From a virus, in IMG/VR virus record IMGVR_UViG_3300025131_000006: a stretch of DNA of 64,000 nt, one strand, 5' to 3'. Every line of letters begins with the position of its first letter. Positions within the stretch are counted from its first letter, which is position 1. Position numbers and translations under genes: made by a program. A model generated the notes under the pieces. It searched no databases. It was not told the DNA's origin and was given only the letters and a program-made list of their open reading frames with translations. Shown piece by piece: positions 920 through 61,077 of the stretch.

Positions 920-934
920 ATTTAGTCACTAAAC
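920..934. repeat. 15-bp palindrome site 1
   Basis: ATTTAGTCACTAAAC, between divergent HTH and ParB-like genes. Confidence 0.8.
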
Positions 935-1031
935 GTTCAGATAGGAAATCAGCGTGTATATATATACTGCGAACGAAGACAAGCGTCGTTGATGTTGTGT
1001 CAACACAAACAGTCCTGTGTCAGGAGCGGAT

Positions 1032-2114
1032 ATGTCGAAAAAGAAAGCCGAAGAGTCTGTGGCCCCGTCGGGGTTGATGACAGACGCCGATGTTTTGTAC
1101 CTCCCGAAAGTGGATGGTCAGTCCTTTACGCAAGCACAGATCCCGTGGGTTCGCATTGAGCAGCACCCGGACTTTCCCAATTCTCGCGAAAGCTTGGGTG
1201 ATGTCCGGGGGTTGGAGGCCGGGATTGACGAGTTGGGGTTAGAGAGCCCGATCGTCGTGTGGCGGCAAGTCGAGGAGGGAGAGCCCGATCGCTTCTTTCT
1301 GATCAGTGGGTTCCGACGTCACCACGCTCTGCAAAACCTCGCAGCGGAAGATCCTGTTGGTTTCAACAATGTGTTTCCGCGAATCCCTGTGCATATCTTC
1401 GAGGGAAAGGTGGACGATGCGATGTTCCACAACTTGAGCGAAAACTCGAATCGCTCTAACCCTAACATGGTCGAGTTTGGGTTGTACGTCGATCGCTTGA
1501 TCGCACGAGGGCACAGGCAGGCTGAGATCGCCGAGCGAGTGGGTCGATCCAAGGGATGGGTGAGCGGTTGCCGAAAGTTCGCGACCTCCAAAGAAGTCCA
1601 CCCGGACACACGGATGGCGATTCGAAACGGAGTGATCGATTACAATATGGGGTATCGTCTGTCGCGAAAGCCGCTCAAGGATCAGCAGGCTTTCATCAGC
1701 GAGCTTACGGCACTGATCAAGGAGTTCGGAGAGGACGCACCAGAGGTTCGCGAGAAGAAAAAGTCGGCCAAGGCTGCTGCGACTACTACGAAGCCGCGTG
1801 GTCGATTGGCATTGCGGCGTCAGTTGGCCTTGATCTCCGAAATGGACTTGTCGGAACACGACAGGGCCTTGGATACGCTGTGGGACGGGTTGGACAAGGA
1901 TGACCGATCCCTGCTGGCTCTGGTCATGGAAATGGTTCACTATTTTGGTGTGATCAAGGGACTCACGTACGCCGACGGTTTCGACATCGATTGGGAGAAG
2001 TCAAGACCTCCGTTTGTGATCGAACCGGATGCCTTGGACATCACGACTGTGGTGAGTGAGGATGGAGCGACGAGTACACCGTATGTTCCCCCGAAGGAGG
2101 CGAAAGAAGCCTAA
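1032..2114 (+). CDS. ParB/Spo0J-like protein (ParB N-terminal domain + HTH)
   Basis: GLESPIVV, ISGFRRHHAL (ParB GxRR box), NLSENSNRSN, HTH QAEIAERVGRSKGWVS; AGGAG SD. Confidence 0.85.
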   Translation: MSKKKAEESVAPSGLMTDADVLYLPKVDGQSFTQAQIPWVRIEQHPDFPNSRESLGDVRGLEAGIDELGLESPIVVWRQVEEGEPDRFFLISGFRRHHALQNLAAEDPVGFNNVFPRIPVHIFEGKVDDAMFHNLSENSNRSNPNMVEFGLYVDRLIARGHRQAEIAERVGRSKGWVSGCRKFATSKEVHPDTRMAIRNGVIDYNMGYRLSRKPLKDQQAFISELTALIKEFGEDAPEVREKKKSAKAAATTTKPRGRLALRRQLALISEMDLSEHDRALDTLWDGLDKDDRSLLALVMEMVHYFGVIKGLTYADGFDIDWEKSRPPFVIEPDALDITTVVSEDGATSTPYVPPKEAKEA

Positions 2115-2506
2115 TGGCAGAGCAAGGCAAGGCTGTCGCAGCGGTTATCCCTGTGACAGATGCGTGGAATGCTGTCGTGTTGGAAGACGGAAACGTTTTA
2201 ATGCAGCACCGAATGGCATTTATCCAAGGCACCCCGGACTATGTGGATTTGAGTGACCCAAGTGAGCATGACCAACTTGTATTGGAGGAGCTTCAAAAGA
2301 TGGACTCCGAGCGAGTGTTGGTTCGATGTCTGTACTTGGGAGAGGATGGTTCGGTATCTTACGATGTTCACGGGGTCTCGCCTATGGGGATTCCGGTAGA
2401 TCCGTTCACGGCGTTGGGCTCAGCAGGACCAAGTGCGGGTCGGTATATCCGGCGAGAGCAGCGTAATTTTGAGACATCTCATGTCATGGTGCCAGATTCA
2501 ACGTAG
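2114..2506 (+). CDS. hypothetical protein
   Basis: TAATG coupling to ParB-like gene. Confidence 0.6.
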   Translation: MAEQGKAVAAVIPVTDAWNAVVLEDGNVLMQHRMAFIQGTPDYVDLSDPSEHDQLVLEELQKMDSERVLVRCLYLGEDGSVSYDVHGVSPMGIPVDPFTALGSAGPSAGRYIRREQRNFETSHVMVPDST

Positions 2507-2626
2507 AGGTGTAGGTTTCCCCAAGAGAGGGGGTCTCTTGGGGATAACTCTTGTTGAATTCGTGGTTTTCGTGTACGCTTCTGTGTAAAAGGAGCCCGTT
2601 TTATCAGGGCAGCACAGGAGAGCATT

Positions 2627-3328
2627 ATGCGAAAAAGCCAATTAGCTTCAAAACAAGGTCTTCCTCCCGGAGCGGGGATTGCCCCGCCTGCCGCGTTGCA
2701 GGCGGTTCGCGAGTTCATGCCAGGGCATGACGCCGTTGCGGTTCAATCGAACAACCAAGACGCCACTTTGGCGAATGCGATTGACAATATGCCGGGTCGG
2801 CAGATGAGTCGAGAAGACCGAATGGACCGTCGAGCAGAAGGTGTTCGTCAAGACGCAGCACATTTGCGTCGTGAGACGAACACGGGTGCGACGCATCGCC
2901 GCAGTCGATACAAAGGTCGAACTGCCGAGTATGGGACCGCAGCGGAGCGATTTGCTCGCCGTGCGGCCCAAAATCAATCAACACTCGATACCCACCAGGC
3001 GTTCTACGAAGGCGGCGAAGTCGAGGAGGTCGAACAGGGTTCGGTGGATATGGTTCCGTTTGTGTCGGGCGAGGTCACGGCAGAGCAGCAGCAAAACCTG
3101 CAAGATGAAGCCGCTTCTCTGAATATCTCGGCGGCCGATCGGTTTGCGAGTCGGGTGAAGTCGAAAGACTCTCTTGGTTCTCGGCGTCGTCGGAATCGCG
3201 ATGCACTGCGGGCCGAGATGGAAGCGGATGGACTTTTGGAACCGGAAGCGTCTTCCGGAGAGTCCTCCTCTGAGTCGAACTCTGAGATCGCGGGCCAAGA
3301 GTTGAAGGCAATACCTTCCTTGCTTTAG
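2627..3328 (+). CDS. hypothetical protein
   Basis: 233-aa ORF with AGGAG SD. Confidence 0.65.
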   Translation: MRKSQLASKQGLPPGAGIAPPAALQAVREFMPGHDAVAVQSNNQDATLANAIDNMPGRQMSREDRMDRRAEGVRQDAAHLRRETNTGATHRRSRYKGRTAEYGTAAERFARRAAQNQSTLDTHQAFYEGGEVEEVEQGSVDMVPFVSGEVTAEQQQNLQDEAASLNISAADRFASRVKSKDSLGSRRRRNRDALRAEMEADGLLEPEASSGESSSESNSEIAGQELKAIPSLL

Positions 3329-3334
3329 GGTTGT

Positions 3335-3349
3335 GTTCAGTCACTAAAC
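3335..3349. repeat. 15-bp palindrome site 2
   Basis: GTTCAGTCACTAAAC, intergenic. Confidence 0.9.
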
Positions 3350-3402
3350 TCTTTCGGCAGATTTGATTTCTCTGACTTCTCTTTGTTCCAAGGGGCACTC
3401 CG

Positions 3403-4197
3403 ATGTCAAAGCAGGGGCAGCAGGCATTCCCGGTCGTTCGGGATCGCGAAACATCGGGCAATAGCACAGGTGGTGTTGCACCTCCGGGGTACGGAGCGCA
3501 CGACAAAGAAGATCATTTGTGGATTATTCCCAAGTTCGCGATCCACCCGATCACAAAGAGGTTGGAGGCCACGGCAGGGTTGTTTTATCGAATGTGGCCA
3601 GAGCATGTCTCTGCGTTGTTGGAGATGCGTGACGAGGGATGGCCGCACATTGAGATTGTTCGAGTTGCCAAGGAGTTCTGGGGTCGTCAACAAGAGGCGT
3701 ATCAGAAAGATGAAGCCTTGGTGCAGCAGTACAAAGAGCAGTCTCACTCGCAGCGAATGCAGGAAGGGCAGAATTTGCAGGCGGGTGCAGCAGGTCTGTT
3801 GCCACCGGAAGTGGCACAGCAGATGGAGCAGGGACAGGAAGATCCCGAATTGCAACGCAGCTTATCTTTAATGCCGACGTCGGAGTATCGTCGGGCGTTG
3901 GCAGAGTATAAAGATAAGCATAGCCAGGGTCGTCGGCACGGTCGGCGTCCGCCATTTACACGAAGTCAGCGAGGTTCTGCCATGGAAACGATGACACGAA
4001 GACAGCACCGTTCATGGGGGAGGGGTGGTGGTTTCGCTGTTCTGACCAAAGCAGATGTCACCGGGGAAGAGGTCGATACGCCGAAAAGATTGCGCGATAA
4101 GCGCGAGATGTCTTTTACGCGAAAAGATACAGGCGTGGCGAATGCTGCGTTCTCGGCACCGTCTGACTCAAATGTTGATCATCGAGGTACGTCGTGA
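3403..4197 (+). CDS. hypothetical protein (carries GGFAVLTKA motif variant)
   Basis: 264-aa ORF, GTGA overlap with portal start. Confidence 0.65.
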   Translation: MSKQGQQAFPVVRDRETSGNSTGGVAPPGYGAHDKEDHLWIIPKFAIHPITKRLEATAGLFYRMWPEHVSALLEMRDEGWPHIEIVRVAKEFWGRQQEAYQKDEALVQQYKEQSHSQRMQEGQNLQAGAAGLLPPEVAQQMEQGQEDPELQRSLSLMPTSEYRRALAEYKDKHSQGRRHGRRPPFTRSQRGSAMETMTRRQHRSWGRGGGFAVLTKADVTGEEVDTPKRLRDKREMSFTRKDTGVANAAFSAPSDSNVDHRGTS

Positions 4198-7100
4198 GTC
4201 TGTCGAGTTTCTATACGAATTCGGGAAAAGCACAGACGATGACGGAGGCTCCTGTCAGGAGAGCTTCTATTGTTGCTCCAGGGTTGCCGGTTGTGTCGGG
4301 TGGCAGTAAGGGGCAACCCATTGTTAATGATGGACTCCGTTTAGTTGGAGGGTTGGATGTGTTGTCTACGAATTTGGGTATGGAGCCCGGATTCAAGGCT
4401 GCTAAGAGCCATGGAGCTTCGCAACAACTCAAGCGTCTCCCCGCAACAACAGACCTCACAGCGGCTCGCGGCCCGCGAGCACGCTTCTTTGACCCTCTTT
4501 CCTTGGTCTATGCTTCAGGGTATCGCGATCGTCGCTTCAGCTTGACCTATGACACGATACGCCGAACGGTGTATCAGTTGTCATTATTGGGCTCTATTAT
4601 CCTGACGCGGATCTACCAGGTTGCTTCGTTTGCACAGCCGTATCGCGAGAACCAACAGATTGGCTTCAAAATTGGCTACAAGGACGACACGTATATTCCG
4701 CGAGAAGAGCAGCGTCGCGAGATAGTCGAGCTGGAGAGGATGGTTATGGCGTGTGGGTTTGATCGGAACCCACACAACACGGAGCCTCGCGATGACTTTG
4801 AGACATTCTTGAAGAAAATCACCCGCGACTCTTTGCAGTTTGATCAGATGTGTGCCGTTAAAGGCACTTGGGTTGAGCTTGCTGATGGTACAGGAGTTCC
4901 CGTTGAGTGTATTGAATCTGGAATGGTGGTGCGCTCTCACAATGGGGTGGAGCGAGAAGTTATCCATCCCACCTCACGGCTCTATTCAGGTGAGATGGTT
5001 GAGATTCAGGTGCGAGGACAACGGTTAAATGTGACCACAGGCCATCCTTTGTTGGTGGCAAAGAGGTCTTCGGTTGATGGAAACGCGGTGGCTTTCAAAG
5101 AGCCTGAGTGGATCGCCGCTGGCGAAGTGACAGATCGGGATTACGCACTCTACCCAAGACCGCTCTTGGGCAGAGAAGATATATCCTTGGATGTATTCGC
5201 CCAAGAGCCAAGGAAATTCCCTGTTGGCCCAATGGATCGTTTAGTGGAGTTGGCTGATTGTCATCCAAAAACGGCCAGAGATATTCTTTCGGGAACGTAC
5301 AAGAAGAATGGGCTACTTGTTGCCGAGGTGAAGGCACTTGCCAAAGAGCTTGGTGTCTCTATGGAGTACAAGAGAACTTGGCAACCTAAGACGGAATTGA
5401 CGACTGCTTGGGGAAGGTTTCTTGGGTTGTATTGTGCTGAAGGGCATGTGCAGGGTACATCGGTACGTTTGACATTCCATGAAGACGAAGCGGGTCTCGT
5501 TGAATTCGTCCGAAGCTTTGGTTCACTGTATGGTATCGAAAGTTCAGTCACTGAATATCTTGACCGTGCAGGAGTAACGGTTATTCTTTACTCTTCTGCA
5601 CTCGCTGAGTTTTTGAAAAATCATTGTGGTACAGGCTCCAGCGAAAAGAGAGTCCCATCATTCATACTTGGTGCTCAGAAGATGGTGAAGGAGCATTTTC
5701 TTTTGGGTTACTTGGAGGGTGATGGTCATCTCAAAAAGACAACAGCCCACTTCACCACGACCTCACGCAATTTGTTTACAGGTCTTCGCCTTCTCTTTGC
5801 GGATCAGGGCATCTATGTTGCAGAGGTGAAAGTACCCTCTGCAAGAGAACAGTGGGACGAACAATATGCTGGTTCGTTGTCAGGCCCGGCTTATCGAACG
5901 TTGGCTCGGAGTTTGGGTTTACCTGTGGAGGAACCCAGTAAAGAGCGCAAGTCGTACCATGTGGGAGAGAAGTTCTTTTATGTGAAGGTCTCTGCTGTTC
6001 GCAAGTACGAAGTGGAGAACTTGCGTGTCTTCAATATGGAGGTGGAGGAAGACCACAGCTACGTGGCAGAGGGAATTGTCAACCACAATTGTTTTGAGAT
6101 CGTGCCCGATTCGAAGGGCCGACCTGCTGAGTTCCACGCAGTAGACGCAGCAACGATCCGCTTGGCGGCAACGTACGACAACCACAAACCAGGTAAGGCT
6201 CCTCGCAAGTTTCATTCGGCAGAGTTCTCCGAAGATTGGAAGCAAGAGCGGGACTTGGGCGAAGACTTTGTGGTGCAAGATGACCAGATTCAGACGGTCC
6301 AGGTCATTCACGGGAAGATCGAAAACATCTTCACTGCCGGAGACATGGCGTTTGGGATTCGCAATCCGAGGTCGGATCTGTGGGTCAACGGATATGGTTT
6401 CTCCGAGACAGAGATGTGCTTGAGCACGGTTTTGCGAATGCTGTGGTCCGAAGAGTATAACGCTCGAAACTTCCGCCAGGGGAACATGAGCGGTGGCTTC
6501 TTGAACCTGAAAGGGGAGACGTACGATCCCGGAACCATCGAGACTTTTAAGCGGGTCATTCGTGCGAATGCATTGGGGTGGGAGAACGCACACCGCGTGC
6601 CTATCTTGCAGATCCCTGAAGGCATCGAGTTCGTCAATCTCCAGCGAGGCAATCGCGAGATGGAGTATGGTCGTTGGCAAGAGTATTTGCTGAAGATCAT
6701 CTCTGGCGTTTACCAAATCGACCCGGCTGAGATCAACTTTGATATTGGGAAAGCAAGCTCCCAAGGCCAGCCGATGTTCGAGAACAAGGCTGAATGGAAA
6801 ATCAAGTATTCGAAAGACAAGGGATTGCGACCGCTTTTGCGTTTCTTGGCTCGGCAGATTTCGAAGTACATCATTGAGCCCCTGAACCCCGATCTGTATT
6901 TCGATTTCGTGGGCTTGGACAAGATGAGCGAGCCGGAAAGGATCGATCTTTTGACGCGACAGGTTACGACGTATTTGACGATCAACGAAGGTCGCGAGAA
7001 AGAGGGTCGAGACCCGGTTGTCGGCGGCGACGTGATCTTGAATCCTGTTTATTTTCAAGCCAAGGCTCAAGCGGAGCAGGTTCCGATCAAGGCAGACAAT

Positions 7101-7380: not shown

Positions 7381-7395
7381 GTTCAGTAGCTGAAC
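7381..7395. repeat. 15-bp palindrome site 4
   Basis: GTTCAGTAGCTGAAC, intergenic. Confidence 0.85.
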
Positions 7396-13266: not shown

Positions 13267-13281
13267 GTTCAGTTACTAAAC
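13267..13281. repeat. 15-bp palindrome site 5
   Basis: GTTCAGTTACTAAAC, intergenic. Confidence 0.9.
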
Positions 13282-17900: not shown

Positions 17901-17953
17901 TCACAAGGGGTCTGTTGGAGCTAGGAAGTTCAGCCACTGAACCTTCGGCTTGA
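14921..17953 (+). CDS. large putative head-associated protein with HKYIRR module
   Basis: 1010 aa; acidic N-terminal third, K|S sites (VEKS, TKS, LVKS, VAKS), AGHKYIRRWY..WRYEY. Confidence 0.65.
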   Translation: MAAQDKTDVTGVIFIEFRGDKATVKKMEGHLPPGTQQHVQELMGWLGSQRSDSEPRGNVTDDPGDGRSSNELGETEAPTQIISQPDAQSRPGVLHEDAGGASNPPTPTVRNFPPHMHGHPGASDTDSSLTSGPHAGYMKMDQGGHVDPDAGLEHPISEDLDLEGDDSGVGDPENEGELSDVPVGGEDGRIHPEHRTDPEEDPTSHVDPQLQAALEELDEKARALKEEAHEAASRHDHERIHEIHEEYRKLKAEFMELAKQSGEEEDPDERVRPEHFGEGEPPGGMPPEEEPPENEELGKPSAGLPRNSIPARSVEKSGNERSTKSDLDGWRWWLLDVEKSARFGSTPVRHSAKHHSDHSGGPRAGHKYIRRWYDLKSHRWRYEYTDEKEERHGAGKEAIHAAAHGIPHTIESHPGIASGEVTTPLRKKKKIKDAAHAYRVTIQAWNDGIWGLKKDPSRVTWVDTDQHGHHHVMRQHHNKTYEVMHHPAGSQAPEDSHAMEMGDNHRQTLRGYVEHHHLHADEKVESQRDSDGKPWLSLRPDTRKRAGKSADGWTIHESKRNAKDFHGGGWDGVFLQSREQADRVVAFMVAFEEAHNKGESGPVFQDLGKDDSEHGPMTLPGKLERGALHYEAEFGTDTIRVSGSHGGDVVSAKVLRLRPKVSDEELGAYLDSEEFKSIVGAAIGRAGLANVVRHNGSKLTPHQRKHLESVARSKAIELMSMEYVERKSAVWPRGFVPGSGWWNGYLANHLANTGNGGGAFLEELTSTATTKDVDGVAQAPSGSADAALASEFHGMDDVLDTLRDIHGIQDNETLIDKLMSDFGEAFDSKQEMMDFLKEQLLAKKAMSQLGRLSELVKSLEEAASQGVIERDDLEDDSVYQKAVSFLVRAQHARILSRVVDNVAQDLWEHDFLSSVAKSVATHDRDVLLDRVAEHGRVYAQEFGCSDGEAREHMLSSFSRFRSNHLFKGCCQMVMAAEWGGEESIALVALGRDSITRGLLELGSSATEPSA
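17928..17942. repeat. 15-bp palindrome site 7
   Basis: GTTCAGCCACTGAAC, in CDS (SSATEP). Confidence 0.85.
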
Positions 17954-20855: not shown

Positions 20856-22337
20856 ATGAGCATGGTCGGCCTGCGGCATTATGAAGGTCTGGGGATTGAC
20901 GGCTTTGGCTTGGGTTCCATTCAAAAGGTTCAGCAACTGAACAAGGCGTTGGAGGCTGGTTATGAAACCAACCCCGCGCTGATGTCCGGTGGCGCCGCCC
21001 ACAAGGTGGAATCTTTGGAAGGAAACCTCAAGATCCTCACACACACCGATCGCCATTTGGTCTTTTGGAGAGACATCTTTAAGAGCCCGGCATACTCCAC
21101 CTCGGAAGAGTACGGAGTGCAAGAGTCCTACGGTGATAACGGCTACGGCGCCTTCTACAAGGAAGGCGAATTGCCCTTGGAAAATGACAGCGTCTACCGT
21201 CGGAAGACGGCGCTCGTCAAGTACATGGGCACCGTCCGTAAAATTTCACACCCTGCGACTCTGATCCACCCGGCCTTTGGCGACTTGATCGCCAAAGAGA
21301 ACGAGAGTGGCATCATGTGGCTGTTGCGCCAAGTGGAGGAGTATCTCTTCCGTGGCAACAGTCGCCTCGTCTTCCAAGGCGAAGGCGAGCAGTTCGATGG
21401 ACTGCGCCACCTGATCGATCCCACGATGGTGCTGGATCTGGAAGGCAACGCCCTCCAAGAGGCGGACTTCGAGGAGTCCTCCAACCTGTTGGCATCGGCA
21501 GGTTTCGCGTATCCTACGGATGCGTACCTCGGATACTACCCCCTGAGCGATCTCGTGAAGACGATGTATCCCCGTCATCGCGTCTCCCTCCCTGCTCCTA
21601 CCGATGGTCGTATCGGCCAAGCGGTCAACGAAATCACCACCCAAGCTGGTATCATCAATCTGAAAGCCACGCGCTTTCTGGAGCGACCCGATACGGCTCC
21701 CACGGTGGCGAGTGGTCCTGCGACTCACGTCCCGACTCCTCCCAAGCGCATGTTGGCCCCGACGATCGGTGCCACGGCGACGACCGGCGAGTTCGACAAG
21801 AGCCAAGGCAAGTTGGACGCCAAGTACGCATACGTGGCTTCCTTCGCGAACCGCTTCGGTGAGTCCGCTGCGACGGCTCCGGTTGTCAGCCCCACGATGG
21901 TGGGTGCCGATGCGATCAAGGGGCGCGACATCGTGCTCCAGGTCGAAGGTGCCGATAACACCCAGATCCCCCCCGAATATATCCGTATCTATCGGACGGC
22001 GGCTCTGGATGTCAACGACGCGACTCCGACGGACATGGCAGCGTACTCGCTGGTCATGGAGATCCCGGTCGAGTCTCAGTCGAACAACGGCATCACCCCG
22101 CAAGTGGCTGGCACGCTGACCGACAAAAACATCACGATGCCCTTCATGGAAGAACTGTACCTCGGCGAGATGACTCCCGAAGTCCTGACCTTCCGCCAAC
22201 TGGCCCCGCTGATGAAGATGGAACTCGCGGTCAACGGCCCCGCCTACACCTGGATGATCATGCTGTACGGCGTGCCCATCTTGTACGGACCCAAAAAGTG
22301 GATGCGCATCACGAACATCGGTCGTCTCGGTCTCTAG
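20856..22337 (+). CDS. major capsid protein (Twort/SPO1-like)
   Basis: LNK|ALEAGY, ESLEGNLKILT, VKYMGT, YLFRGNS..EGEQFDGL..LID, QLAPLMKMELA..MLYG motifs. Confidence 0.93.
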   Translation: MSMVGLRHYEGLGIDGFGLGSIQKVQQLNKALEAGYETNPALMSGGAAHKVESLEGNLKILTHTDRHLVFWRDIFKSPAYSTSEEYGVQESYGDNGYGAFYKEGELPLENDSVYRRKTALVKYMGTVRKISHPATLIHPAFGDLIAKENESGIMWLLRQVEEYLFRGNSRLVFQGEGEQFDGLRHLIDPTMVLDLEGNALQEADFEESSNLLASAGFAYPTDAYLGYYPLSDLVKTMYPRHRVSLPAPTDGRIGQAVNEITTQAGIINLKATRFLERPDTAPTVASGPATHVPTPPKRMLAPTIGATATTGEFDKSQGKLDAKYAYVASFANRFGESAATAPVVSPTMVGADAIKGRDIVLQVEGADNTQIPPEYIRIYRTAALDVNDATPTDMAAYSLVMEIPVESQSNNGITPQVAGTLTDKNITMPFMEELYLGEMTPEVLTFRQLAPLMKMELAVNGPAYTWMIMLYGVPILYGPKKWMRITNIGRLGL

Positions 22338-22389: not shown

Positions 22390-22404
22390 GTTCAGTAACT
22401 GAAC
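22390..22404. repeat. 15-bp palindrome site 8
   Basis: GTTCAGTAACTGAAC, after MCP. Confidence 0.9.
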
Positions 22405-24252: not shown

Positions 24253-24267
24253 GTTCAGTGACTAAAC
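24253..24267. repeat. 15-bp palindrome site 9
   Basis: GTTCAGTGACTAAAC, intergenic. Confidence 0.9.
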
Positions 24268-27180: not shown

Positions 27181-27253
27181 GGGTGTGTAGCTGAATGGGT
27201 TAGCGGGAGTCTTTAAAACTCTGTCCAAGTGGGTTCAATTCCCACCATGCCCG
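27181..27253 (+). tRNA. suppressor tRNA, anticodon TTA (reads UAA)
   Basis: GGGTGTG/CATGCCC acceptor, GGAGT-CTTTAAA-ACTCT anticodon arm, GTGGG-TTCAATT-CCCAC T arm. Confidence 0.8.
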
Positions 27254-28382: not shown

Positions 28383-28437
28383 CCCTTCTTGGTGCTTTTA
28401 CTCCTCCTGTTCCTGGGGTGATAACATCGAGAAGCTT

Positions 28438-28676: not shown

Positions 28677-28691
28677 GTTCAGTCACTGAAC
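28677..28691. repeat. 15-bp palindrome site 10
   Basis: GTTCAGTCACTGAAC, in tRNA cluster. Confidence 0.9.
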
Positions 28692-32499: not shown

Positions 32500-32874
32500 A
32501 TGAAGAGACCAGACACGTAACTTCACCAGAAAGAATTCCCGCCACCTCACAGGGACGCCGTATACGTCATTGTGCGGCAAGATCTCCTCCCTGCCCAAGT
32601 AGCTGTCCAGGCGTGCCACGCAGTTTTGGAGGCTACTCGTCAATTTGTCTCTTCCGAGACACCCCACCCGAACATCATTGTGTGCCAGGTTCCCACCGAT
32701 CAAGATCTTCTTGCGTGGAGCTTGGCGTGTGATCAGGCTTGTATCCGTATTGCGGAGTTCCGTGAGCCGGATATTGGCGATCAGCTAACAGCGATCGCCA
32801 CAGAAGTGGTGCCCCACAAGCACCGTCGTTTTTTTAAAAAGCTGTCTTTGTACCGACCGACGTTCAGTCACTGA
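32500..32874 (+). CDS. PTH2-like peptidyl-tRNA hydrolase with in-frame TAA at codon 7
   Basis: YVIVRQDL..AQVAVQACHA..FREPDIGDQLTAIA..KKLSL motifs; ATG 32500 with SD; TAA 32518-32520 in frame. Confidence 0.75.
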
Positions 32875-32876
32875 AC
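32862..32876. repeat. 15-bp palindrome site 11
   Basis: GTTCAGTCACTGAAC, supplies the PTH2 TGA stop. Confidence 0.9.
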
Positions 32877-35816: not shown

Positions 35817-35831
35817 GTTTAGTGACTGAAC
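35817..35831. repeat. 15-bp palindrome site 12
   Basis: GTTTAGTGACTGAAC, intergenic. Confidence 0.9.
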
Positions 35832-38717: not shown

Positions 38718-38732
38718 GTTCAGTGACTAAAC
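38718..38732. repeat. 15-bp palindrome site 13
   Basis: GTTCAGTGACTAAAC, beside promoter-like box. Confidence 0.9.
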
Positions 38733-40606: not shown

Positions 40607-43600
40607 GTGGGAAAGAAGATGTCCGAGCCTGTTGAAACAGTTGAGTCTCCTGATTTGAGTCCTTCTCCGGAAGCCCTTGATCAGCATGCATTTATGGAGC
40701 AGTACCACAAAGAGGATGGTCCGGGGGAGGGAGGGGAACATCAGGTGCGCGATCTGATGCGGGATAACTCTTGGGTGCGAGCAGCACATCTTCCGGTGAA
40801 TCACAGCGAAGCAGGATGGAAGGCGGGTCGAAGAATGCCAGAGGGCATTGATCCGGAGCACGGGGAGATGTGGGATGGTTTTCGGACAGCCAACAAACTC
40901 TCCGCTTTCCATGGAGAGGAGCCGATCCATCCAGATGATTACAGGGAGATGTTTGAATCCGACAGGGAAGCACGGGATCAGCATCGTGAATCTGTTTCGG
41001 TCTCCGACGTTCTGGGGGGATTTGGCTTGGAGTTGGGGAGGAAGAGTAAGCTTGACTCCGAGCCCGTTCAAATGGTTTCGGAGGAGCTTGGTCGCCTCCA
41101 AGGGGCGGGGATGTCCTTGTCGTCTCCGGGTTATCGTGGGGCTATAAAGTTAGAGATGCAGTCACCAGACGACGATCCTGAGTATTGGGCGTATGGCCTG
41201 TTGAGAGGTGAGTACTTACCAAAGAAACACGCAATCCGCGTTGACCGCAGCGGTGAGTCTTTCGCACATGAGTGGTTTCACGCGGTAGATGGCGACTTGG
41301 GTTTGCCGAAAAGTTGGTGGCGCCGGGCAGCGCAAAAAGTAAAGACGGCTTTTGATTTTACCAAATTTGCGGCATCTAATGGTCAAGGAGATAGGCCAGA
41401 GTCGAGACACTTAGAGAGCTTTGTGAAGTTCCTTTCGACGATACCAACTGTGCAAGAGAGATGGGATCGGTCTTATTCGACGGAGTCAAGACCTGGGATG
41501 TTGGATTGGTTGCAAGGGGATATGCCGGAAGATCCTGGAAAGGACTTGGCCGAGTATATGTTGTCTCCGCACGAGGTGTGGGCACGATTCGGGGCACAGT
41601 TGGTCTCATACAGGTCGGCTGTTGCAGTTGCTCAAGGTAGATTGGCTCACCCGACCTTGTTGGCAAACCCATACAGTGAGTTGTTGAAAGATCCAGGTCA
41701 TTGGACACATGAGGAGTTCTCTCGCATCGTGAAAGTATGGGAGAGATCTCCTCTCTCGAAGATGTTGGAGTCGGGGATAAGAAAGGCTCTTGGGTTTGGG
41801 GTGTTCTTGAAGTCTGAGGGCGAGCAACTGTCGCTGCCGTTCTCTATACGGGCACACACTCCAGGTGGCAGTGCTCCGCCTGCTGTCTCGCCACCAACAC
41901 CTGTTGCGGATTCACCAGGAAGTTCAGTCACTGAACATTCAGGGACGGGCGGTGCAGCAGTTTCCAACAGCACGACCACCGATTCCTCTCCTGAAGTACC
42001 AACGGAAATAGTCCCGCCAGAACTGACCGGGGAGTGGGAACAGGCGGGAGGTGGCGTGCGGCATCGCGTAAAGGGCTATGTTCCCGTTATGTCGCATCCA
42101 AAATACGAAGAGATCGATCTTCATCCAGGGGCTTCTGCGAACGCGAGAGCCCATGCTTATCGGAATCGACGGGTATTGGAGGAGCCGAAAGTTGTTGATC
42201 ATATGCCAATCCATGAGTATGGACACAGCGGCCTACATCAGGAGCGGGGGTGGGACGATATACCGGGCCGATCCATACATGATCTGGAGGAGATTAACCG
42301 CCGGGGTGTGTCGATGCAGCACAGGTATCCATCGGTGGCATCGGTCGAGTTTGAGCCGGAAGAGATCTATTCGGCGATGGATGGTTTGCAAGCAGAATTC
42401 GAGCATCGATTCCAATCACAGCTTGGGGTGGTTAATAAGCACAAATACAAGGCACAAGTTCCCGACCACGGATTTTCGTTTGCCAATGAAGAGTCTGTGC
42501 GGAGTCCGGCACAGGTGGCAGCGGCGACATCTGCTTCGCTGTGGACAGGCGGGAAGGTCGAATATGTGCGCAATCCGGACCTTTGGGACTCAAACGAACT
42601 CGACAAGGAGAGCGTGGGAGGTCCTGGTGGGTGGGAGGGAGAGAGGACGGAAGAGAATTACAGGATGGCGCATCGGGTGATGACACAGTTGGCACAACGT
42701 CAGGGTGACGAGACAGTGTCAGTTGCTCGTGGGATGGCCATTCCAAGTCATCACGTGCCAGGGTTTTTGGACAAGATGGACTTGGGAGACATCTCAAGCT
42801 GGACCAAGGGAAGTAATTATCAGCCCACTATGACTTTTGTGAGTCATGCCTTGGATCATGGGTTTTGGGACGAAAGTCACCTTGAGTCTTTTGAGCACCA
42901 GCTTCGGGAAGGGCTGGAGCAGTCGGGGAACTTTGAGGAAGGAAGCGACGAGGTAGATCAATTACTCGAAGAATATTTCGAGCACCACGGCGGGCCATTG
43001 GGGAACAATGGTGATGCTGACATTTTTGTTGAATTGGACATGGACAGTGAGGTGCGTCACTTCCGAGAGAGTAATCTTGGGCATTACTCTTCTGGCATGG
43101 CAGCAGTCGTGTTGTTGGCCGATACAAATATTGGAACGACACTGAACCACATCTCAGCTTATCCGGGTGAGTGGGAGCATGTGCTCGGAGGAGAGGCCAC
43201 GGTGCGCGACGTGCGAAGGATTCCCTCTTGGGATTCAGGTGAGTGGGACGAGGAAGATTTTTGGGACCATGATGAAGATGATTATGCCGCTCGCGAAGAT
43301 CACCCAGCGTACGGAGACACAGGAGAGAAATTTACGGAATTCACGGGTGCCAATGACCATCTTGTAGGTGGTCTCGAAATTTACGTTATCAAAGTCGAAG
43401 TGGCGCCCAAGTCCGAAGTAAAGAAGGGTCTCTCTCAAAAGGAGAAGCCCAAGCCGAAGACGTTCCAAGATTGGGTGGATTGGAACTTGAATATAAATCT
43501 TCCTCGAAAAGGCAAGGAGGAGCCGAGCACGAACAAGGACGAGAGAAAAGAGCAGCCTGTTATCACCAAGGGACCGACTTGGTCGGGGCATAAGTTGCAA

Positions 43601-47805: not shown

Positions 47806-47820
47806 GTTCAGTCACTAAAT
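47806..47820. repeat. 15-bp palindrome site 15
   Basis: GTTCAGTCACTAAAT, intergenic. Confidence 0.85.
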
Positions 47821-49473: not shown

Positions 49474-49488
49474 GTTTAGTCACTGAAC
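49474..49488. repeat. 15-bp palindrome site 16
   Basis: GTTTAGTCACTGAAC, right after stop. Confidence 0.9.
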
Positions 49489-54519: not shown

Positions 54520-54534
54520 GTTCAGTCACTGAAT
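54520..54534. repeat. 15-bp palindrome site 17
   Basis: GTTCAGTCACTGAAT, beside promoter-like box. Confidence 0.85.
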
Positions 54535-54621: not shown

Positions 54622-57600
54622 ATGGAATTGGTTTGCATCGAATGCTTATCAGGTGGCTTCGGCTTGTTTGTGAAAGGTGCGGGGCACAAGTACATCAAGC
54701 GCGAGTTGGTTTCGACTTCTCCAAGAAAGTATCGGTATTGGTACAAGCTCCCCAGAGGAGCCTTGGTGCATGATGACGCCGTTCACGTGGGCGCCAAGTT
54801 CCGTCATGGTTCCGGTGACGATCGCGGGCACTATCACGTAGACGAGGTCCATGATGATGGCTCGGTCAGCGTTACCCACGATGAGACCGGACATACGACC
54901 AAAGTGTCTGCACACAAGCTCAAAGACATGATCCACACGGGTGATCATGATCTAGGTGAATCTCCCCAAGAGAAAGGGGAGCGGGTGCTCCAAAGCTACC
55001 AACAGGCTCTCCAGACGGGCACAGACAAGCAGATCTCGCTGCGCTTACATGATCTGATGGAGCACGTGGCGGCTTATCCGCAAGAGTCGGTGTCGTTGGG
55101 TTATGCGTTGGCTCAAGCAGATCCAGGCGTCAAAGAGGCCATGTTGTCATTGGCTCATGGTGGGGTGTCCACGTTCAAGACGCACAAGTCCACAAAGAAG
55201 CGTGGAAAGAAGGGCGAGAAAACAAAACACGGTGGAGCACACGTCGAGGTGACGTTGGAGCACCGTTCGTATGGAAAGATCGTCGAGGATTCGGCCAAGC
55301 AGTTGGAGCAGTTGGATGAGTCGGCGATTGTTCAGGAGATCCAAGAGAAGACGGGCGCCACAGAAGACGAAGCCAAGCAGGCGTTCTTGGCTGTAAAGAA
55401 CAGCTTGGCAAAGAAGCAGAACTCTTCGAATGAGGGGGCATCGTATCTGGAGCCCTTCACGATAGACGGCGAGTCTGTTCCGGGCGTTTTTGTTTACAGT
55501 GGGAGTAATGAGAGCAAGAAGGGAACTCTTTATGTTCGCGGACTGATCGAGAACGAAGACGTGTTGGACCCTGGGTTTGGACCGGCTCCGAAGTCTGCGA
55601 AGCCGGGTAAGGTTCTCGCTCGTGCTCAGGCTGTCATGCGGTCCAAGTTGGACATAGGCCGGGTGCGTCAATACACGTTGACGCCGAGTGCTTTGTACGA
55701 GTGGTCACACGCTCCGGCAACCGGGGCAGACTTCAAAGAGGTTGATGGAGGGGCTGCTGATCAGGATAGCCTAGCTAGCCAGGCAGATTCCGGGTCTAAA
55801 AGTTCAGTCACCAAACAGTCTCACAAGGAAAGTTCGGACCTGGCTAATAGCCAGGTCGCCGAAGAGTCACCAGATGAGTTGGACGAGAGCTTGCCTTCCG
55901 GCAGCGAGGGTCTTCAATACGAGGGTGCCAAAAAAGGAGGTCAGTACCCCGGAGCAATCGTGAGTCACCCAGACTTCCCCGACAAGCAGTTTATGGTTAA
56001 GCCAGGACGGGATTTTTTGGTGCACGCAGAAGTTGCCGGTACGAATCTGGCGGCACGAGTGCTCGGCGACGATGTAGCCAAGGCACGTCATATCGATGTA
56101 GGTGGAGCCCCGCAATCGATCGGAAAGGGCCAGCAACACGCATCGATTCAAGAGATGCGCGAGAACGACGGAGATTTGGTCTCCAATCGATATGACAGTC
56201 ACATGATCCGGAATCTCCCGCAAGAGTTGAAACAAGATGTGCTGCGTCATCAGGTGGCGACGTGGTTGGTGGGTGATTCGGACGCTCACGCCGGGCAGTT
56301 CTTGCGTGGGACCGACGGGAGTTTGATTCGGATTGACTTGGGTCAAGCGTACAAGCACATCGGCAACGATCGGCTCGATCCGAGCTGGCAGCCGAACAAT
56401 CCCCCGCCGGTAGTATCCCATCTGTTGGTGGGCGATTACGCAAAGGGCCAGGGAGAGTTGGACTTCACGGACCCCCGGATCAAAGAGGCAGTGGAGAGAG
56501 CCGAGTCCATCACAGACGATGAGGTGGCACAAGCAGTCCAGCCGTATGCCGACGGTTTGGAGAAATCGGGTATTCGCTCTGCGAAAGAGACGATCGCGAA
56601 GGCAGTGGCTCGAAAGAACGGCATCCGGTCTGACTTCGAGCAGTACTTCTCCAAGGCACTCTCGCAGCGACACGGCAAGCCGATGACGTTTTCGTTTGAG
56701 GACGGCATCTCGGAGGGCGGCGTCTCTAAGGGTTTTGGGGTGTGGAGCAAGAGTGGCACTCCGGTGGAAGATGCAGACGACTCGACTGAAGCACCGACGA
56801 GGTTTCACGGTGCCAAGTTGTTTTATATAGAGCCTTTGATGGAAGAGCCCAAGGGTTTCGGGGCTCTCACGAAGGGCAGTAAGCATAAGTATGTGAAGCG
56901 AGAAGTTCGTATTGGACCTGATGGCAAGAAGCGTTATCGGTATTGGTATAAGCTCCCCAAGGGACATATCGTGACCGACGACTCTCTTCATATAGGTGCC
57001 AAGTTCCGCCACGGTAAGGACGAGGAGCGGGGGCACTTTCATATCGAGAGCATAAATCCGGATGGGACAATGAACGTTCGGCATGATGAGACCGGAGAGT
57101 TCAAGAAGGTCACGCTCGACAACTTGCGCGGGATGATCCACACGGGAAGCCACGACATCGGAGAGAACCCTGCGAGCAAGCTCCAGCGGTTGTTGGAGTC
57201 TTTGCACTTAGCGTTGCAGCACGGGACGAAAAAGCAGTACAATAAGCTGTACGAGCATGTGATGGAGCACGTGGAGGCGTTTCCTCATATCGCGTTCGAG
57301 GGGAACGAGCCTGTCACATCGGACCATGTGCAAGATAAAATGGCGGATGTGTATTCGGCGGGCAAGCTGTCAGAGCACTTGGACGACCACGAGCACTTGT
57401 CGGATGAGGTGAAGTACCAGGGCTTCTTTGCGGAAGCCAAAGCATTGGCCGAAAAGTATCATGATGCCTTGGTGGAAAAAGCTAGAGAGGCGGGTGCTAA
57501 GGGGTCTTCGTACACATATTGGATTATCAATGAGGCAATCTTTAAAAAGTTAAACAAGGAGCAGTCTGCTCTCTTCGAAAAGTACAAAGATGCACCAAAA

Positions 57601-60570
57601 AGTGTAAAGACATCGGTAGTTGCGTCCCACTTGGGGTCTTCTGTAAAGGGTGTTTCCCCGCTGATCTCCGAGCTTCAAGCAGCCCATGCGGAAGGGAGTC
57701 AGTCGTTTAATGCCAGCGTTGACGAGGTTCACAAGAAGGTTGTTCATATTCGAGGGATGGTGGAGTCGGGTCAGCTTTACGCCGATATTTGGAAAGAGCT
57801 TGAGGATCTGCGAGAGCATGTGCTCAGCTTGTCGGGTGAGGTCCAACACGAGTTGGAAGATTCGTACGACTTCCTGTGGACGACAGAGGGCTTGAAAGGA
57901 AAGCTGAAGCAGTGGAAGGGGCAAACCTCGTACGGGACGCATGAATATGTCGATCTCGTGCATATGGGCTTCAATGGTGTCCTGAAAGACATGTCGAAGG
58001 CGAAGGCTCTTCAGTACATCAAAGACAACGTGACGTGCGAGTATCACTCGGAGGAAGAGGCTCTCAAGATCGTGGGAGACTCGTACGATGCGACGGCAGC
58101 GACGTTTTTGAATGTCCAAGCCAAGCTCGATTATTTGAAAGACTTGATCGAGTCGGAGTCAGACAACGCGGATATTTGGGCAGCGGCTGAAGTGCTGTTT
58201 ATGGAGCTTTCTTCGACAGGGTTGTTTAAGCACCCGGCGTTCGAGGAGATGAAGACGTGGAAGAAAATCTCGAAGTTTGTGAAAGAGGGCATCGAGGAAG
58301 CAGCGAAGTCGCCTACGGACAGTCCGCAAATTCCTGGGTACAAGTATGATGCTCTTTACCCCATGGGCTTGGGTGTCAACACTACAGTCTTCGGCACGGT
58401 AAAGAAGGAGAACCCCTACGTTAAGCTTGTGAGCGGTAGCGATACCACAAGCCACGAGGTGTGGGCAGAGGGGATTGATACAAAAGGGAACCCTGCGTAC
58501 ATCCATGTGGGAACAATGGTTCCTGACGAAACATACCCCGATTTGATGCATTGCTTTACTCCTGCGGGGAATGAGATCAAGTCAAAGGGCAAGATACCCA
58601 AGGGCCTCAAGTGGGGAGGGAACTTGCTTGTTTGGTTCAAGGTGAACGTTACCGAGCCAAAAGAAGAGTTCACCGATGGCGCCGAGGAGGAGTATCAAGC
58701 GTTCTGGGGAGCGACGCCCTTGGGTATAATGACGGGCAAAGGTACACCGAGCGACGCACCGGAGCCAGGGTCTGAGTCTGAGTCGGGCGAGAGTTCAGTG
58801 ACTGAACCGTCGGATGCTGCTCCGGATAGTTCTGATTCTGATGCAGAGCCAAAACCAGGTAGCCCGGACACAGCATCCGAGACGAGTGCTCCAGCACCGA
58901 CGCCCAAGAAGAAAAGCATCTTGCAGGGCAAGAAGGCGGTGAAGCATGGGACATTGGTGACAGGTGGCCAAGTTGCCAAGAAAAAGAACAAAGAGACAGG
59001 CGGGTGGCACATTGTTGCGGAAGCCCAACATGGGAACAAGACCGTCGCAAAGGTGATTGGCTCGATCCACAAGAAGGGGAGCAAGTGGTACGCGGATAAT
59101 TCGCCGGAGATAGGAGGCTTCAAGACAGCGGGTGCGTTGATTGAGGTGATGCAGAACAAGGCGTTGGATGTCCAAAACAACCCGCCTGCTCCTCCGGTGT
59201 CAGAGCAGACACCCCAAGACAAGGTGTCTCAGCTTATATCAGAGTTGAAGACCGTCCTCGATGCTGGCGATATGTCGGATGATGTGATCTCCACATTCTT
59301 TTACAAGATCGAGCAATTGGCGGCCAATAATTACGGTTTGATGCATGATGGCCAGCCTGTGACCAATAAGCCGTTCTTGTATCAGTTGGTGATGGATGCG
59401 GGAACTGCGGGCAACTTAGACAATGCCGAAGGATGGAAGGTCTGGTCTGAGCACAAGAATAAAGACATCAACGCAGCCGTGTCAAAGCCCAAGGCTCCTG
59501 CCGATGTCTGGATGGCTATTCAGAAGGAGACCAACGCAGCCGCGTACAAGAAGCAACAGGCCGAAGTGGCGGATAAGTACAAGGCCCATGGCCACCTCAT
59601 CGAATCCCCACCGGCTATGGGTGGGTTTGGAGCACTCCAGCAAGACAACACATATGCAGATGGGTCAGTTGGGGCTATTCGTGCGATCCACGATCATGTT
59701 CGAGAGAAGTACAACCTCGGCAGCATCTCAGCGAAGCATCACAACAAGCGAAAAGATGTCATCGCAGCGTTGTTCCCGGCGGAAAACTCCACGGTGAGTA
59801 GCTGCGCGGCGACTTGGACGACGACATCAAACCCCATCGGGTACGGTGGGAGCTTGAACAATAACGTAATGTTTCGGTTCTTCTCGATCGCTATGGGCTT
59901 GCGGAACTTAGAGGAGGAGATCAGCAAGCTCAAGGATATTTATGGGATGAAACCGCAGCACGAGCAGCGGTTTCGCCAGGAGTACGCAGAATTTGTCGAT
60001 CCCTCTCACAGCAGGTTCCGCCAGTTCGAGTGTTTGTTGTTACGTCATGTGGTCTGGCGAGATGCCGTGATGGCAAATGGCGGAGAGGGAGTAGATACGG
60101 CAACGGGCACGCTTCACCTCTTCCGAGGCATGGGCAAACTCTCGAAGGATTATGTTGATGGTCTGAGAGAAGGAAACTTGGGTCAGACTTCGGCTGCAAG
60201 TTGGTCTACCGTAAAGAGCGTTGCCAACAGCTTCAGCGGCGGGGGCTTTGGAAGCTCTAGCTATTCGGTAGTGTTTGAGGCCGATAGTGTTCCGATTGAG
60301 CACTGTCTCTTGGGTAAACACACAGAAGGAATTGGGTTCGGCAGCGAGAAAGAGGTGATTGTTGGAACAGCCCACAAGTCGAAGACCGTTCATGTTTACG
60401 TGAAGCCACCAGGGATGGATAAAGAAACAGTGATGCAGGAGAGGAACCTCCCCGGTGGTACTGTTGTAACGCACAAGTCTCTTGCTCGCGGCGGATTTAT
60501 CTTGGGCGTGGTGAAGAATTCGGGCTTCCGGACTATTTCGAAGAGCCGGTATGGATCGGCGTACGATTAG
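54622..60570 (+). CDS. large polyvalent protein: 2x HKY module + HipA/PI3K-like kinase + C-terminal ADP-ribosyltransferase
   Basis: Duplicated HKY.KRE..YRYWYKLP..GAKFRHG module; MVKP..AEVAG..GDSDAH..IDLG; LFRGM..AASWS..SEKEVIV. Confidence 0.78.
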   Translation: MELVCIECLSGGFGLFVKGAGHKYIKRELVSTSPRKYRYWYKLPRGALVHDDAVHVGAKFRHGSGDDRGHYHVDEVHDDGSVSVTHDETGHTTKVSAHKLKDMIHTGDHDLGESPQEKGERVLQSYQQALQTGTDKQISLRLHDLMEHVAAYPQESVSLGYALAQADPGVKEAMLSLAHGGVSTFKTHKSTKKRGKKGEKTKHGGAHVEVTLEHRSYGKIVEDSAKQLEQLDESAIVQEIQEKTGATEDEAKQAFLAVKNSLAKKQNSSNEGASYLEPFTIDGESVPGVFVYSGSNESKKGTLYVRGLIENEDVLDPGFGPAPKSAKPGKVLARAQAVMRSKLDIGRVRQYTLTPSALYEWSHAPATGADFKEVDGGAADQDSLASQADSGSKSSVTKQSHKESSDLANSQVAEESPDELDESLPSGSEGLQYEGAKKGGQYPGAIVSHPDFPDKQFMVKPGRDFLVHAEVAGTNLAARVLGDDVAKARHIDVGGAPQSIGKGQQHASIQEMRENDGDLVSNRYDSHMIRNLPQELKQDVLRHQVATWLVGDSDAHAGQFLRGTDGSLIRIDLGQAYKHIGNDRLDPSWQPNNPPPVVSHLLVGDYAKGQGELDFTDPRIKEAVERAESITDDEVAQAVQPYADGLEKSGIRSAKETIAKAVARKNGIRSDFEQYFSKALSQRHGKPMTFSFEDGISEGGVSKGFGVWSKSGTPVEDADDSTEAPTRFHGAKLFYIEPLMEEPKGFGALTKGSKHKYVKREVRIGPDGKKRYRYWYKLPKGHIVTDDSLHIGAKFRHGKDEERGHFHIESINPDGTMNVRHDETGEFKKVTLDNLRGMIHTGSHDIGENPASKLQRLLESLHLALQHGTKKQYNKLYEHVMEHVEAFPHIAFEGNEPVTSDHVQDKMADVYSAGKLSEHLDDHEHLSDEVKYQGFFAEAKALAEKYHDALVEKAREAGAKGSSYTYWIINEAIFKKLNKEQSALFEKYKDAPKSVKTSVVASHLGSSVKGVSPLISELQAAHAEGSQSFNASVDEVHKKVVHIRGMVESGQLYADIWKELEDLREHVLSLSGEVQHELEDSYDFLWTTEGLKGKLKQWKGQTSYGTHEYVDLVHMGFNGVLKDMSKAKALQYIKDNVTCEYHSEEEALKIVGDSYDATAATFLNVQAKLDYLKDLIESESDNADIWAAAEVLFMELSSTGLFKHPAFEEMKTWKKISKFVKEGIEEAAKSPTDSPQIPGYKYDALYPMGLGVNTTVFGTVKKENPYVKLVSGSDTTSHEVWAEGIDTKGNPAYIHVGTMVPDETYPDLMHCFTPAGNEIKSKGKIPKGLKWGGNLLVWFKVNVTEPKEEFTDGAEEEYQAFWGATPLGIMTGKGTPSDAPEPGSESESGESSVTEPSDAAPDSSDSDAEPKPGSPDTASETSAPAPTPKKKSILQGKKAVKHGTLVTGGQVAKKKNKETGGWHIVAEAQHGNKTVAKVIGSIHKKGSKWYADNSPEIGGFKTAGALIEVMQNKALDVQNNPPAPPVSEQTPQDKVSQLISELKTVLDAGDMSDDVISTFFYKIEQLAANNYGLMHDGQPVTNKPFLYQLVMDAGTAGNLDNAEGWKVWSEHKNKDINAAVSKPKAPADVWMAIQKETNAAAYKKQQAEVADKYKAHGHLIESPPAMGGFGALQQDNTYADGSVGAIRAIHDHVREKYNLGSISAKHHNKRKDVIAALFPAENSTVSSCAATWTTTSNPIGYGGSLNNNVMFRFFSIAMGLRNLEEEISKLKDIYGMKPQHEQRFRQEYAEFVDPSHSRFRQFECLLLRHVVWRDAVMANGGEGVDTATGTLHLFRGMGKLSKDYVDGLREGNLGQTSAASWSTVKSVANSFSGGGFGSSSYSVVFEADSVPIEHCLLGKHTEGIGFGSEKEVIVGTAHKSKTVHVYVKPPGMDKETVMQERNLPGGTVVTHKSLARGGFILGVVKNSGFRTISKSRYGSAYD
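55802..55816. repeat. 15-bp palindrome site 18
   Basis: GTTCAGTCACCAAAC, in CDS linker (SSVTKQ). Confidence 0.75.
58793..58807. repeat. 15-bp palindrome site 19
   Basis: GTTCAGTGACTGAAC, in CDS linker (SSVTEP). Confidence 0.9.
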
Positions 60571-60634
60571 GCGGATTCATGGTTTATATTATCCGTATGT
60601 CAATGTGAAATAATACACAAGGAGAAAAAAAACC

Positions 60635-60814
60635 ATGGCAAAGAAACACAAAGTGCCTGCTGAGTTGGCTGCGTTGGGGTTCGAGCACATTCGCTCTGTG
60701 AGTTCAGGCGAGGTCTCGTCGGAGAAAGAGGTGATGATGGAGGTGTTGGCTCCGCAAGATAGGGAGGATGACGCGGAGGACAACGCGGAGGACAGTGCGA
60801 AGCCGGAAGAATAG
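60635..60814 (+). CDS. small acidic protein (59 aa)
   Basis: AAGGAG SD; MAKKHKVP..; not in ORF track. Confidence 0.6.
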   Translation: MAKKHKVPAELAALGFEHIRSVSSGEVSSEKEVMMEVLAPQDREDDAEDNAEDSAKPEE

Positions 60815-60818
60815 TCCA

Positions 60819-61055
60819 ATGCGAGTAATCAGGTTCTATGAGTGTTGCTACTCGGACTGTTGCTCGGAGTGGAAGGTGTCCGGACCATTTAGGTATGGCC
60901 CGTACGGCGAGTCTATGTGCCCTGTCTGTGAAAGGCATGGATATATGGTGTCGTCATCGATATTAGAACCTGATGCCGCCAGCGTGAGAAGAGGCGTTTT
61001 TTTTGCTGTGGCTATTGCCATGTTGGCGATGGGGGCGGCGTATATCGCCTTGTGA
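60819..61055 (+). CDS. small zinc-binding membrane protein
   Basis: CCYSDC..CPVC + C-terminal TM. Confidence 0.5.
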   Translation: MRVIRFYECCYSDCCSEWKVSGPFRYGPYGESMCPVCERHGYMVSSSILEPDAASVRRGVFFAVAIAMLAMGAAYIAL

Positions 61056-61062
61056 ACATCAG

Positions 61063-61077
61063 GTTTAGTGACTGAAC
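61063..61077. repeat. 15-bp palindrome site 20
   Basis: GTTTAGTGACTGAAC, intergenic. Confidence 0.9.

Follow-up and report, generated by a model that had tools for sequence, protein, structure and literature searches.

ParB-family proteins that read palindromes scattered over a replicon, rather than clustered, include Noc of Bacillus subtilis, which has scattered binding sites and tethers the chromosome to the membrane, and SopB of the plasmid-prophage N15, which works with four dispersed centromere sites and a ParA-type partner in plasmid segregation. To our knowledge, neither of them shows an even 3-kb tiling of a phage genome. Mycobacteriophage L5 and the rest of Cluster A carry dozens of copies of one short site in short intergenic gaps; these stoperators, asymmetric 13-mers that point in the direction of transcription, are read by a single phage protein, a helix-turn-helix (HTH) immunity repressor. 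Plasmid RK2 has 12 OB sites, the operators of its KorB protein, per 60 kb. Here we describe a 15-bp palindrome, GTTYAGTNACTRAAC, that tiles a novel large tailed phage from marine metagenomes (IMG/VR record IMGVR_UViG_3300025131_000006), together with a ParB-like protein encoded beside one of the copies. The window, that is, the whole 64,000-nt stretch that was analysed, corresponds to bases 39695-103694 of a 104,653-bp IMG/VR viral contig (CheckV completeness 65%), out of a complete genome of approximately 160 kb. The array is real and has been selected as DNA, and KorB with its operator is a closer model for it than parS or Noc.

KorB is a ParB-CTPase/HTH family protein, and OB (TTTAGCGGCTAAA; half-site TTTAGC) is an odd-length palindrome with S at the centre and a TTAG-type half-site (PMC11790492). 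Its sites are dispersed over the replicon, near to promoters and far from them, also inside genes, and one precedes the gene of the protein itself. The phage resembles RK2 in all these respects: its half-site form is TTYAGT-N-ACTRAA, and 34 copies are dispersed over 104.6 kb, one of them 97 nt before the gene of the candidate reader. Unlike RK2, however, the carrier is a large tailed phage with about one site per 3 kb at even spacing, neither ParA/IncC nor a recognisable KorA or TrbA accompanies the protein, and its C-terminal region is unlike that of KorB. Among phages, the Cluster O mycobacteriophages were reported in 2015 to carry a 17-bp dyad repeat, TGTTCGG-NNN-CCGAACA, in more than 30 near-invariant copies; the authors proposed a dimeric binding protein, and the genomes encode a protein with a ParB-like domain (PMC4351075). 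Both phage arrays consist of tens of near-invariant 7+7 palindromes spread genome-wide, in short intergenic gaps as well as inside genes, and tied to no promoter. Cluster O is another lineage with another word, and there the ParB-like protein was not connected with the repeat, whereas here such a connection comes from homologues that have changed palindromes.

With at most one mismatch, the palindrome matches at 21 places in the window, where shuffled sequence is expected to give 0.05 matches and none of 100 shuffles gave more than one. The whole contig holds 34 copies at the same threshold, while the reversed pattern has no match in it. A sequence-only reading of the window had listed 20 sites, and a rescan recovered every one of its coordinates; the total is nevertheless 21, since the copy at 20928 had been overlooked. 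The range of gaps given there, 1.3-5.9 kb, stands (1.28-5.89 kb), but the mean drops from about 3.2 to 3.0 kb when all 21 sites are counted. That reading had also proposed scanning beyond the window and asking whether the spacing is more even than random, which it clearly is: over the contig the gaps run from 1.28 to 6.2 kb and average 3.07 kb; their coefficient of variation (CV) is 0.435, as compared with 0.97 for sites placed at random, and none of 20,000 simulations was as even. A stricter null, with the intergenic sites placed at gene junctions only, gave a CV of 0.966 and again none of 20,000 as even. The centre base on the plus strand is C in 14 sites, G in 15, A in 3 and T in 2, with no bias of orientation or strand; unlike the Cluster A stoperators, the sites are symmetric and unoriented and also occur inside genes. 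Alignment of the 34 sites revealed a weak A-rich/T-rich extension, approximately AAA-15mer-TTT, and no other conserved flank, and hence no fixed promoter geometry. A full-text literature search for the exact 15-mer found no paper. The sites in the window are as follows (window coordinates; none is assigned a strand).

920..934: site ATTTAGTCACTAAAC, with the ParB-like gene on one side and the divergent TerS-like HTH gene on the other; the variant recurs at contig position 18736
3335..3349: site 6 nt past the stop of a 233-aa gene
5542..5556: site within the portal intein, read S-S-V-T-E; a product of substitution and not of insertion
7381..7395: site between the portal gene and a 1220-aa gene
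13267..13281: site 5 nt past a stop codon
14810..14824: site where a gene ends, with a canonical terminator behind it as a separate element
17928..17942: site at the 3' end of a 1010-aa gene, read S-S-A-T-E
20928..20942: site GTTCAGCAACTGAAC, overlooked by the sequence-only reading, within a 493-aa gene, read V-Q-Q-L-N
22390..22404: intergenic site
24253..24267: site 6 nt upstream of an 886-aa gene
28677..28691: site in the tRNA cluster, just upstream of tRNA-Glu
32862..32876: site supplying the TGA that is the stop codon of the upstream gene
35817..35831: intergenic site
38718..38732: site 16 nt from a minus-strand promoter-like repeat
41922..41936: site within an 1811-aa gene, read S-S-V-T-E
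47806..47820: site 12 nt upstream of a 546-aa gene
49474..49488: site directly past the stop of the 546-aa gene
54520..54534: site upstream of a 1999-aa gene, 19 nt from a promoter-like repeat
55802..55816: site within the 1999-aa gene, read S-S-V-T-K
58793..58807: site within the 1999-aa gene, read S-S-V-T-E, in a linker that is acidic and rich in Ser
61063..61077: site directly upstream of a 187-aa gene

Intergenic DNA accounts for 12.7% of the contig, and about 24 of the 34 sites lie at least partly in it. At thirteen sites the palindrome adjoins or runs into the stop codon of the gene before it, and the next start codon often lies 0-36 nt beyond the site; two of the three frames through the word hit a stop if its centre is G or A, so that genes end in it. 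The remaining copies lie mostly in the longest genes, five of the seven genes of at least 2.5 kb in the contig containing one, in agreement with the earlier claim that the word is written into genes where these leave no gap. Its further claim, that such copies are always read S-S-[VA]-T-[EK], holds for five of the six in-gene sites of the window and for seven in the contig, but not for 20928, which uses the other open frame. S-[VA]-T-[EK] peptides occur nine times in the contig and are spelled by a site in seven cases, against a joint codon-usage expectation for TCA, ACT and GAA of 0.4%; it is therefore the DNA word that accounts for the peptide, not the peptide for the word. No gap is needed to align the copy in the portal intein with the intein sequences of relatives and homologues, which indicates that it arose by substitution and rules out a 15-bp insertion or mobile element at this place. 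The two half-sites vary independently of each other (left C or T, right G or A: C..G 17, C..A 8, T..G 7 and T..A 2 of the 34). Independent half-sites together with rare codons forced upon genes point to a double-stranded DNA site for a dimeric protein. On this sequence evidence the word is a predicted docking site of such a protein, and neither an RNA hairpin or terminator nor a 15-bp insertion. The view that the sites are selected for density at the DNA level, and are not the operators of one regulon, is thus borne out by their even spacing, by the override of codon usage and by the independence of the halves; nor do the 34 aligned sites keep a fixed distance to any promoter element, a geometry that would have made them plain operators or promoters.

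The candidate reader and its two neighbours are the following.

1032..2114, plus strand: orphan ParB-CTPase/HTH protein of 360 aa, candidate site reader, assigned by profile and fold
2114..2506, plus strand: conserved gene of 130 aa whose start overlaps the ParB stop; possible partner
164..844, minus strand: TerS-like protein of 226 aa with an N-terminal HTH, divergent from the ParB-like gene; rival binder

Taken as a single sequence, the ParB-like protein gives only a weak match to Spo0J and KorB and a weak match to the Pfam KorB domain (E 0.0044). A library of 1.8 billion proteins contains 676 homologues of it, and a profile of a 27-sequence family matches Spo0J (3e-29), Noc (1e-27), ParB (1e-25) and KorB (1e-14). 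The boxes for binding cytidine triphosphate (CTP) are conserved across the 27 homologues, namely R52 (the box I Arg), G93 and R96 (GFRRHHA; GFRRxxA) and E137, N138 and R141 (E-N-x-x-R), the last box, ENLQR, having Asn in place of its Gln in this phage. An AlphaFold model (predicted local distance difference test, pLDDT, 85) matches structures of Noc, ParB and KorB in both the N-terminal CTPase domain and the HTH domain; KorB in 8qa9 gives the closest fit overall (template modelling score 0.61-0.63). By profile and model alike, the central HTH region lines up with the domains through which Spo0J, Noc and KorB bind DNA (1r71, 6y93, 6s6h). By profile and predicted fold, the 1032-2114 product is a true member of the ParB-CTPase/HTH family. 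This substantiates the earlier claim of a ParB-like gene near the first site, which lies 97 nt upstream of it (start at 1032 by gene call). As judged from sequence, neither hallmark of ParABS partition is recognised: no AAA_31/ParA match was found in the 104.6-kb contig (about 65% of the genome), while the control was positive in 14 of 14 reference genomes, and the homologue alignment reveals no N-terminal ParA-activating motif of the LG[KR]GL type. Likewise, no homologue of KorA or TrbA, the clamp-locking co-repressors, was recognised in the contig. The 130-aa gene is kept in all eight contigs with ParB homologues; it belongs to no family and has no confident fold, and a protein-library search with its product gave no usable match.

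The link between protein and palindrome is suggested by the homologues. Seven contigs were examined that carry homologues, among P0003-P0011, with 30-38% identity to the ParB-like protein, and their repeated palindromes are listed here.

L193 (P0003): GTTTACT-G-AATAAAC, 5-6 copies
L196 (P0004): GTTGAGT-C-AATCAAC, 3-4 copies
L199 (P0005): CTTTAGC-NN-GCTAAAG, 8 copies
L211 (P0006): TATTAGT-NN-ACTAATA, 4 copies
L212 (P0009): TTTTAGC-NN-GCTAAAA, 10 copies
L213 (P0011): TATTAG-N3-CTAATA, 2-4 copies
L214 (P0008): TTCAAAC-GTTTGAA, 2 copies

Each of the seven has a contig-specific repeated palindrome of its own, with a GTT...AAC or TTAG shape, and in all eight cases (this phage, G0, and the seven homologue contigs) the ParB-like gene has a copy 40-250 bp in front of it. 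Since only about a quarter of the gene junctions in this phage carry a site, eight of eight is unlikely to be a matter of chance. P0005 and P0009 have closely similar recognition helices (SAPYVSQILKF and SDAYVSQILKF, or S-x-x-Y-V-S-Q-I-L-K-F), and both of their contigs use the half-site TTTAGC; in the alignment the helix of KorB, SPAFITQ, resembles theirs. The sequence-only reading had proposed a test of whether motif and ParB HTH co-occur and co-vary across related phages, and had held that relatives with this ParB but lacking any equivalent motif would speak against its view. All seven homologue contigs carry such a motif, with a copy upstream of the gene; the co-occurrence is nevertheless incomplete, as a 144-kb relative has an array and no detectable ParB. 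A single-protein search of IMG/VR with the ParB-like protein gave no match. With a 10-row alignment as the query, 11 distant loci were retrieved; about four of these bear palindrome arrays, none of which is placed before the ParB gene.

Two relatives found through TerL (50% identity) bear evenly spaced palindrome arrays of the same shape. One is the 144-kb genome just mentioned (G003, IMGVR_UViG_3300018080_000112; L181-L188), in which GTTAGGWCCTAAC occurs 29 times with at most one mismatch, 28 of them exact, at a gap CV of 0.48. The other is a 23-kb fragment (G004, 3300024262_000255; L189-L190) with six copies of GTTTAGASTCTAAAC at the same threshold and seven exact copies of its core. Because these relatives have arrays made of other words, the array is a trait of the lineage, and the word changes from genome to genome. 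What the two have in common with this phage is the replication and terminase half of the genome only.

Our reading of these observations, to which we give roughly even credence, is that the palindromes are loading sites for the phage's own KorB-like ParB sliding clamp, which would cover the whole genome. In analogy to RK2 KorB, dimers of the 1032-2114 protein would load at each palindrome; a loaded dimer would then form a closed, CTP-bound clamp and slide off. A site every 3 kb or so would keep the entire genome within reach of a clamp, and the need for such reach may be what has pushed the word into long genes that leave no intergenic gap. Here, in contrast to KorB, binding and the use of CTP are predictions from sequence and model; that the ParB-like protein is the binder, that its sliding depends on CTP and what the array is for are points that we infer. 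The array might serve genome-wide silencing or timing of transcription, or it might mark or organise phage DNA for packaging; the position of the ParB-like gene beside the TerS-like and portal genes is a hint of the latter.

Several observations weigh against a ParB clamp as the reader. P0068, whose recognition helix is like that of this phage, goes with parS-like palindromes and not with GTTCAGT. Site 920 adjoins the TerS-like HTH gene and the ParB-like gene equally. In the 144-kb relative, which has its own array, a profile search detected no ParB homologue; the contig is also without a recognisable portal, so that the part it lacks may be where a portal/ParB module lies. An unrelated 62.1-kb phage of 67% GC, found by an exact-word scan of IMG/VR and assembled from contigs 3300037193_000597 and _000179 (L051-L054; metagenome 3300037193) through a 141-bp overlap, has 46 copies of the identical 15-mer. 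The ParB profile finds nothing in these contigs, the sole ParB relative being a 207-aa ParB_N protein without HTH or arginine box; the genome is cut within the terminase gene and is therefore incomplete. Seven copies are present on a HIP1-rich plasmid-like cyanobacterial contig (G005 C58, L175-L176), where this ParB-like protein was not detected. Lastly, in two Streptomyces genomes the 15-mer and a near-copy about 22 bp away stand between divergent HxlR-family and NmrA-like genes. From its position the actinobacterial pair is probably a local operator, and other proteins would thus be able to read the word. Similar pairs are seen in Amycolatopsis and Actinophytocola (the actinobacterial loci are L094:2654, L104:3952, L082:1009 and L093:2295). 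The cyanobacterial contig encodes ParM-like, ribbon-helix-helix (RHH) and excisionase-like proteins, and some of its copies are paired 70-95 bp apart, upstream of genes.

The array of the 67% GC phage has features of its own. Almost all early genes have a site immediately before their ribosome-binding site, and along the structural arm sites recur about every 3 kb, also inside long genes, in both open frames. All 16 matching peptides are spelled by a site, as compared with a codon expectation of 0.02%. On the coding strand most copies have C at the centre; those centred on G provide stop codons.

These observations give substance to the idea that another dimeric DNA-binding protein reads the sites, a possibility that we take seriously while holding it only tentatively. 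Such a protein might be the TerS-like HTH protein, with the sites as a packaging mark, some other phage regulator that uses them as a genome-wide operator or roadblock, or a host protein common to the phages that carry the word. The identical arrays in the 67% GC phage and on the cyanobacterial contig, in neither of which a ParB-HTH homologue is seen, speak for it, as do the apparent use of the same 15-mer as a paired operator of HxlR-type regulators in Streptomyces and the operator-like position of the word before early genes of the 67% GC phage. Moreover, the TerS-like gene is conserved beside the ParB-like gene in G0, L193, L196 and L213, the intergenic site being common to both, and four of seven copies of a promoter-like repeat in this phage sit 13-30 nt downstream of a palindrome. 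On the other hand, L199 and L212 have ParB and an array without a TerS-like neighbour, and the two phages show no DNA similarity and no common protein by blastp, phmmer, a ParB-family hidden Markov model or probes for HxlR, RHH, TerS-like, portal and partner proteins. Nor was enrichment at the level of hosts seen: among the matches listed from a scan of 185,579 species genomes only single copies are found, except in one cyanobacterial metagenome-assembled genome, and in 401 cyanobacterial genomes six others have one match each, no more than the control pattern. Ordinary operators, furthermore, would fit poorly with the even spacing, with sites inside long genes and with the variable distance to promoter elements.

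Two further explanations dispense with a genome-wide binder. The word could be a signal for recombination or mobility, a short repeat that spreads or aids the exchange of modules between co-infecting phages; its presence in unrelated genomes fits this, as does the fact that 15 bp preserves the reading frame, and repeats of the Cluster O mycobacteriophages have recombined to give deletions (PMC4351075). We nevertheless regard it as quite improbable, given that the intein site is a substitution in aligned codons and not an insertion, that the spacing is far too even for random spread and that there is no conservation beyond the palindrome. A role in RNA, as a hairpin for termination, nuclease cleavage or translation control of the next gene, would suit the many sites that follow a stop codon and precede the next ribosome-binding site, flanked by a run of A on the left and a run of T on the right. 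Yet the half-sites do not covary, and 8 of the 34 would have a C-A mismatch in the stem on the plus strand, where RNA tolerates U-G but not C-A. The predicted stability is -7.8 kcal/mol for the perfect form, the best case, and -1.4 kcal/mol for the C..A forms, separate GC-rich terminators follow some of the sites, and the 13-mer of a relative would leave a 1-nt loop. An RNA role is thus very improbable, and an intrinsic terminator or a hairpin like repetitive extragenic palindromic elements was rejected on the same grounds, the missing covariation and the low stability.

Dispersed palindromes have been known in phages since the 2015 Cluster O paper without an assigned reader or function, and a candidate, an orphan clamp of the ParB/KorB type, is offered here. 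If true, CTP-dependent sliding clamps would extend from the segregation of chromosomes and plasmids and the silencing of plasmid genes to the whole-genome marking of tailed phages, and they would form a family of orthogonal protein-site pairs. The occurrence of the same word in an unrelated phage raises the question of whether phages share or exploit each other's DNA 'addresses'. A bolder and in our view unlikely extension is that a large phage of virulent type uses an orphan clamp and about 50 even sites to coat its whole genome or mark it as 'self', with packaging choice, protection or global timing as the purpose; with a 15-bp address common to an unrelated phage, the clamp of one could then read, silence or hijack the DNA of the other.

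The phage itself is new by several measures. A megablast search of 20 kb against 50,697 phage records gave no match, and cultured phages share only about 30% identity with its TerL. The phage occurs in marine metagenome sequencing runs, and no RNA run is among those listed as carrying it. It encodes a helicase, DnaB, a primase, RecA, an Mre11/Rad50 fusion, RusA, TerL and a class II ribonucleotide reductase, as well as a portal protein with a LAGLIDADG intein and eight tRNAs. The large terminase gene (contig 30389-32110) sits in a block of replication and recombination genes, about 8-12 kb from the TerS-like HTH gene (164-844) and the portal gene (4194-7337). At 27181-27253 and 28315-28384, ARAGORN predicts a tRNA with the anticodon TTA, expected to recognise the stop codon UAA, and a tRNA-Tyr whose anticodon, ATA, is unusual. 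The promoter-like repeat mentioned above is a second repeated element of about 45 nt, GCACC[GT]CAAAATAGAACG...AGAAAGACATTACA, with seven copies, which are spread over both strands and stand 30-50 nt before start codons. These lie at window positions 34915, 36820, 38684 and 54483 on the minus strand and at contig positions 6298, 16019 and 20810 on the plus strand, and from sequence and placement the element looks like a phage-specific promoter or leader.

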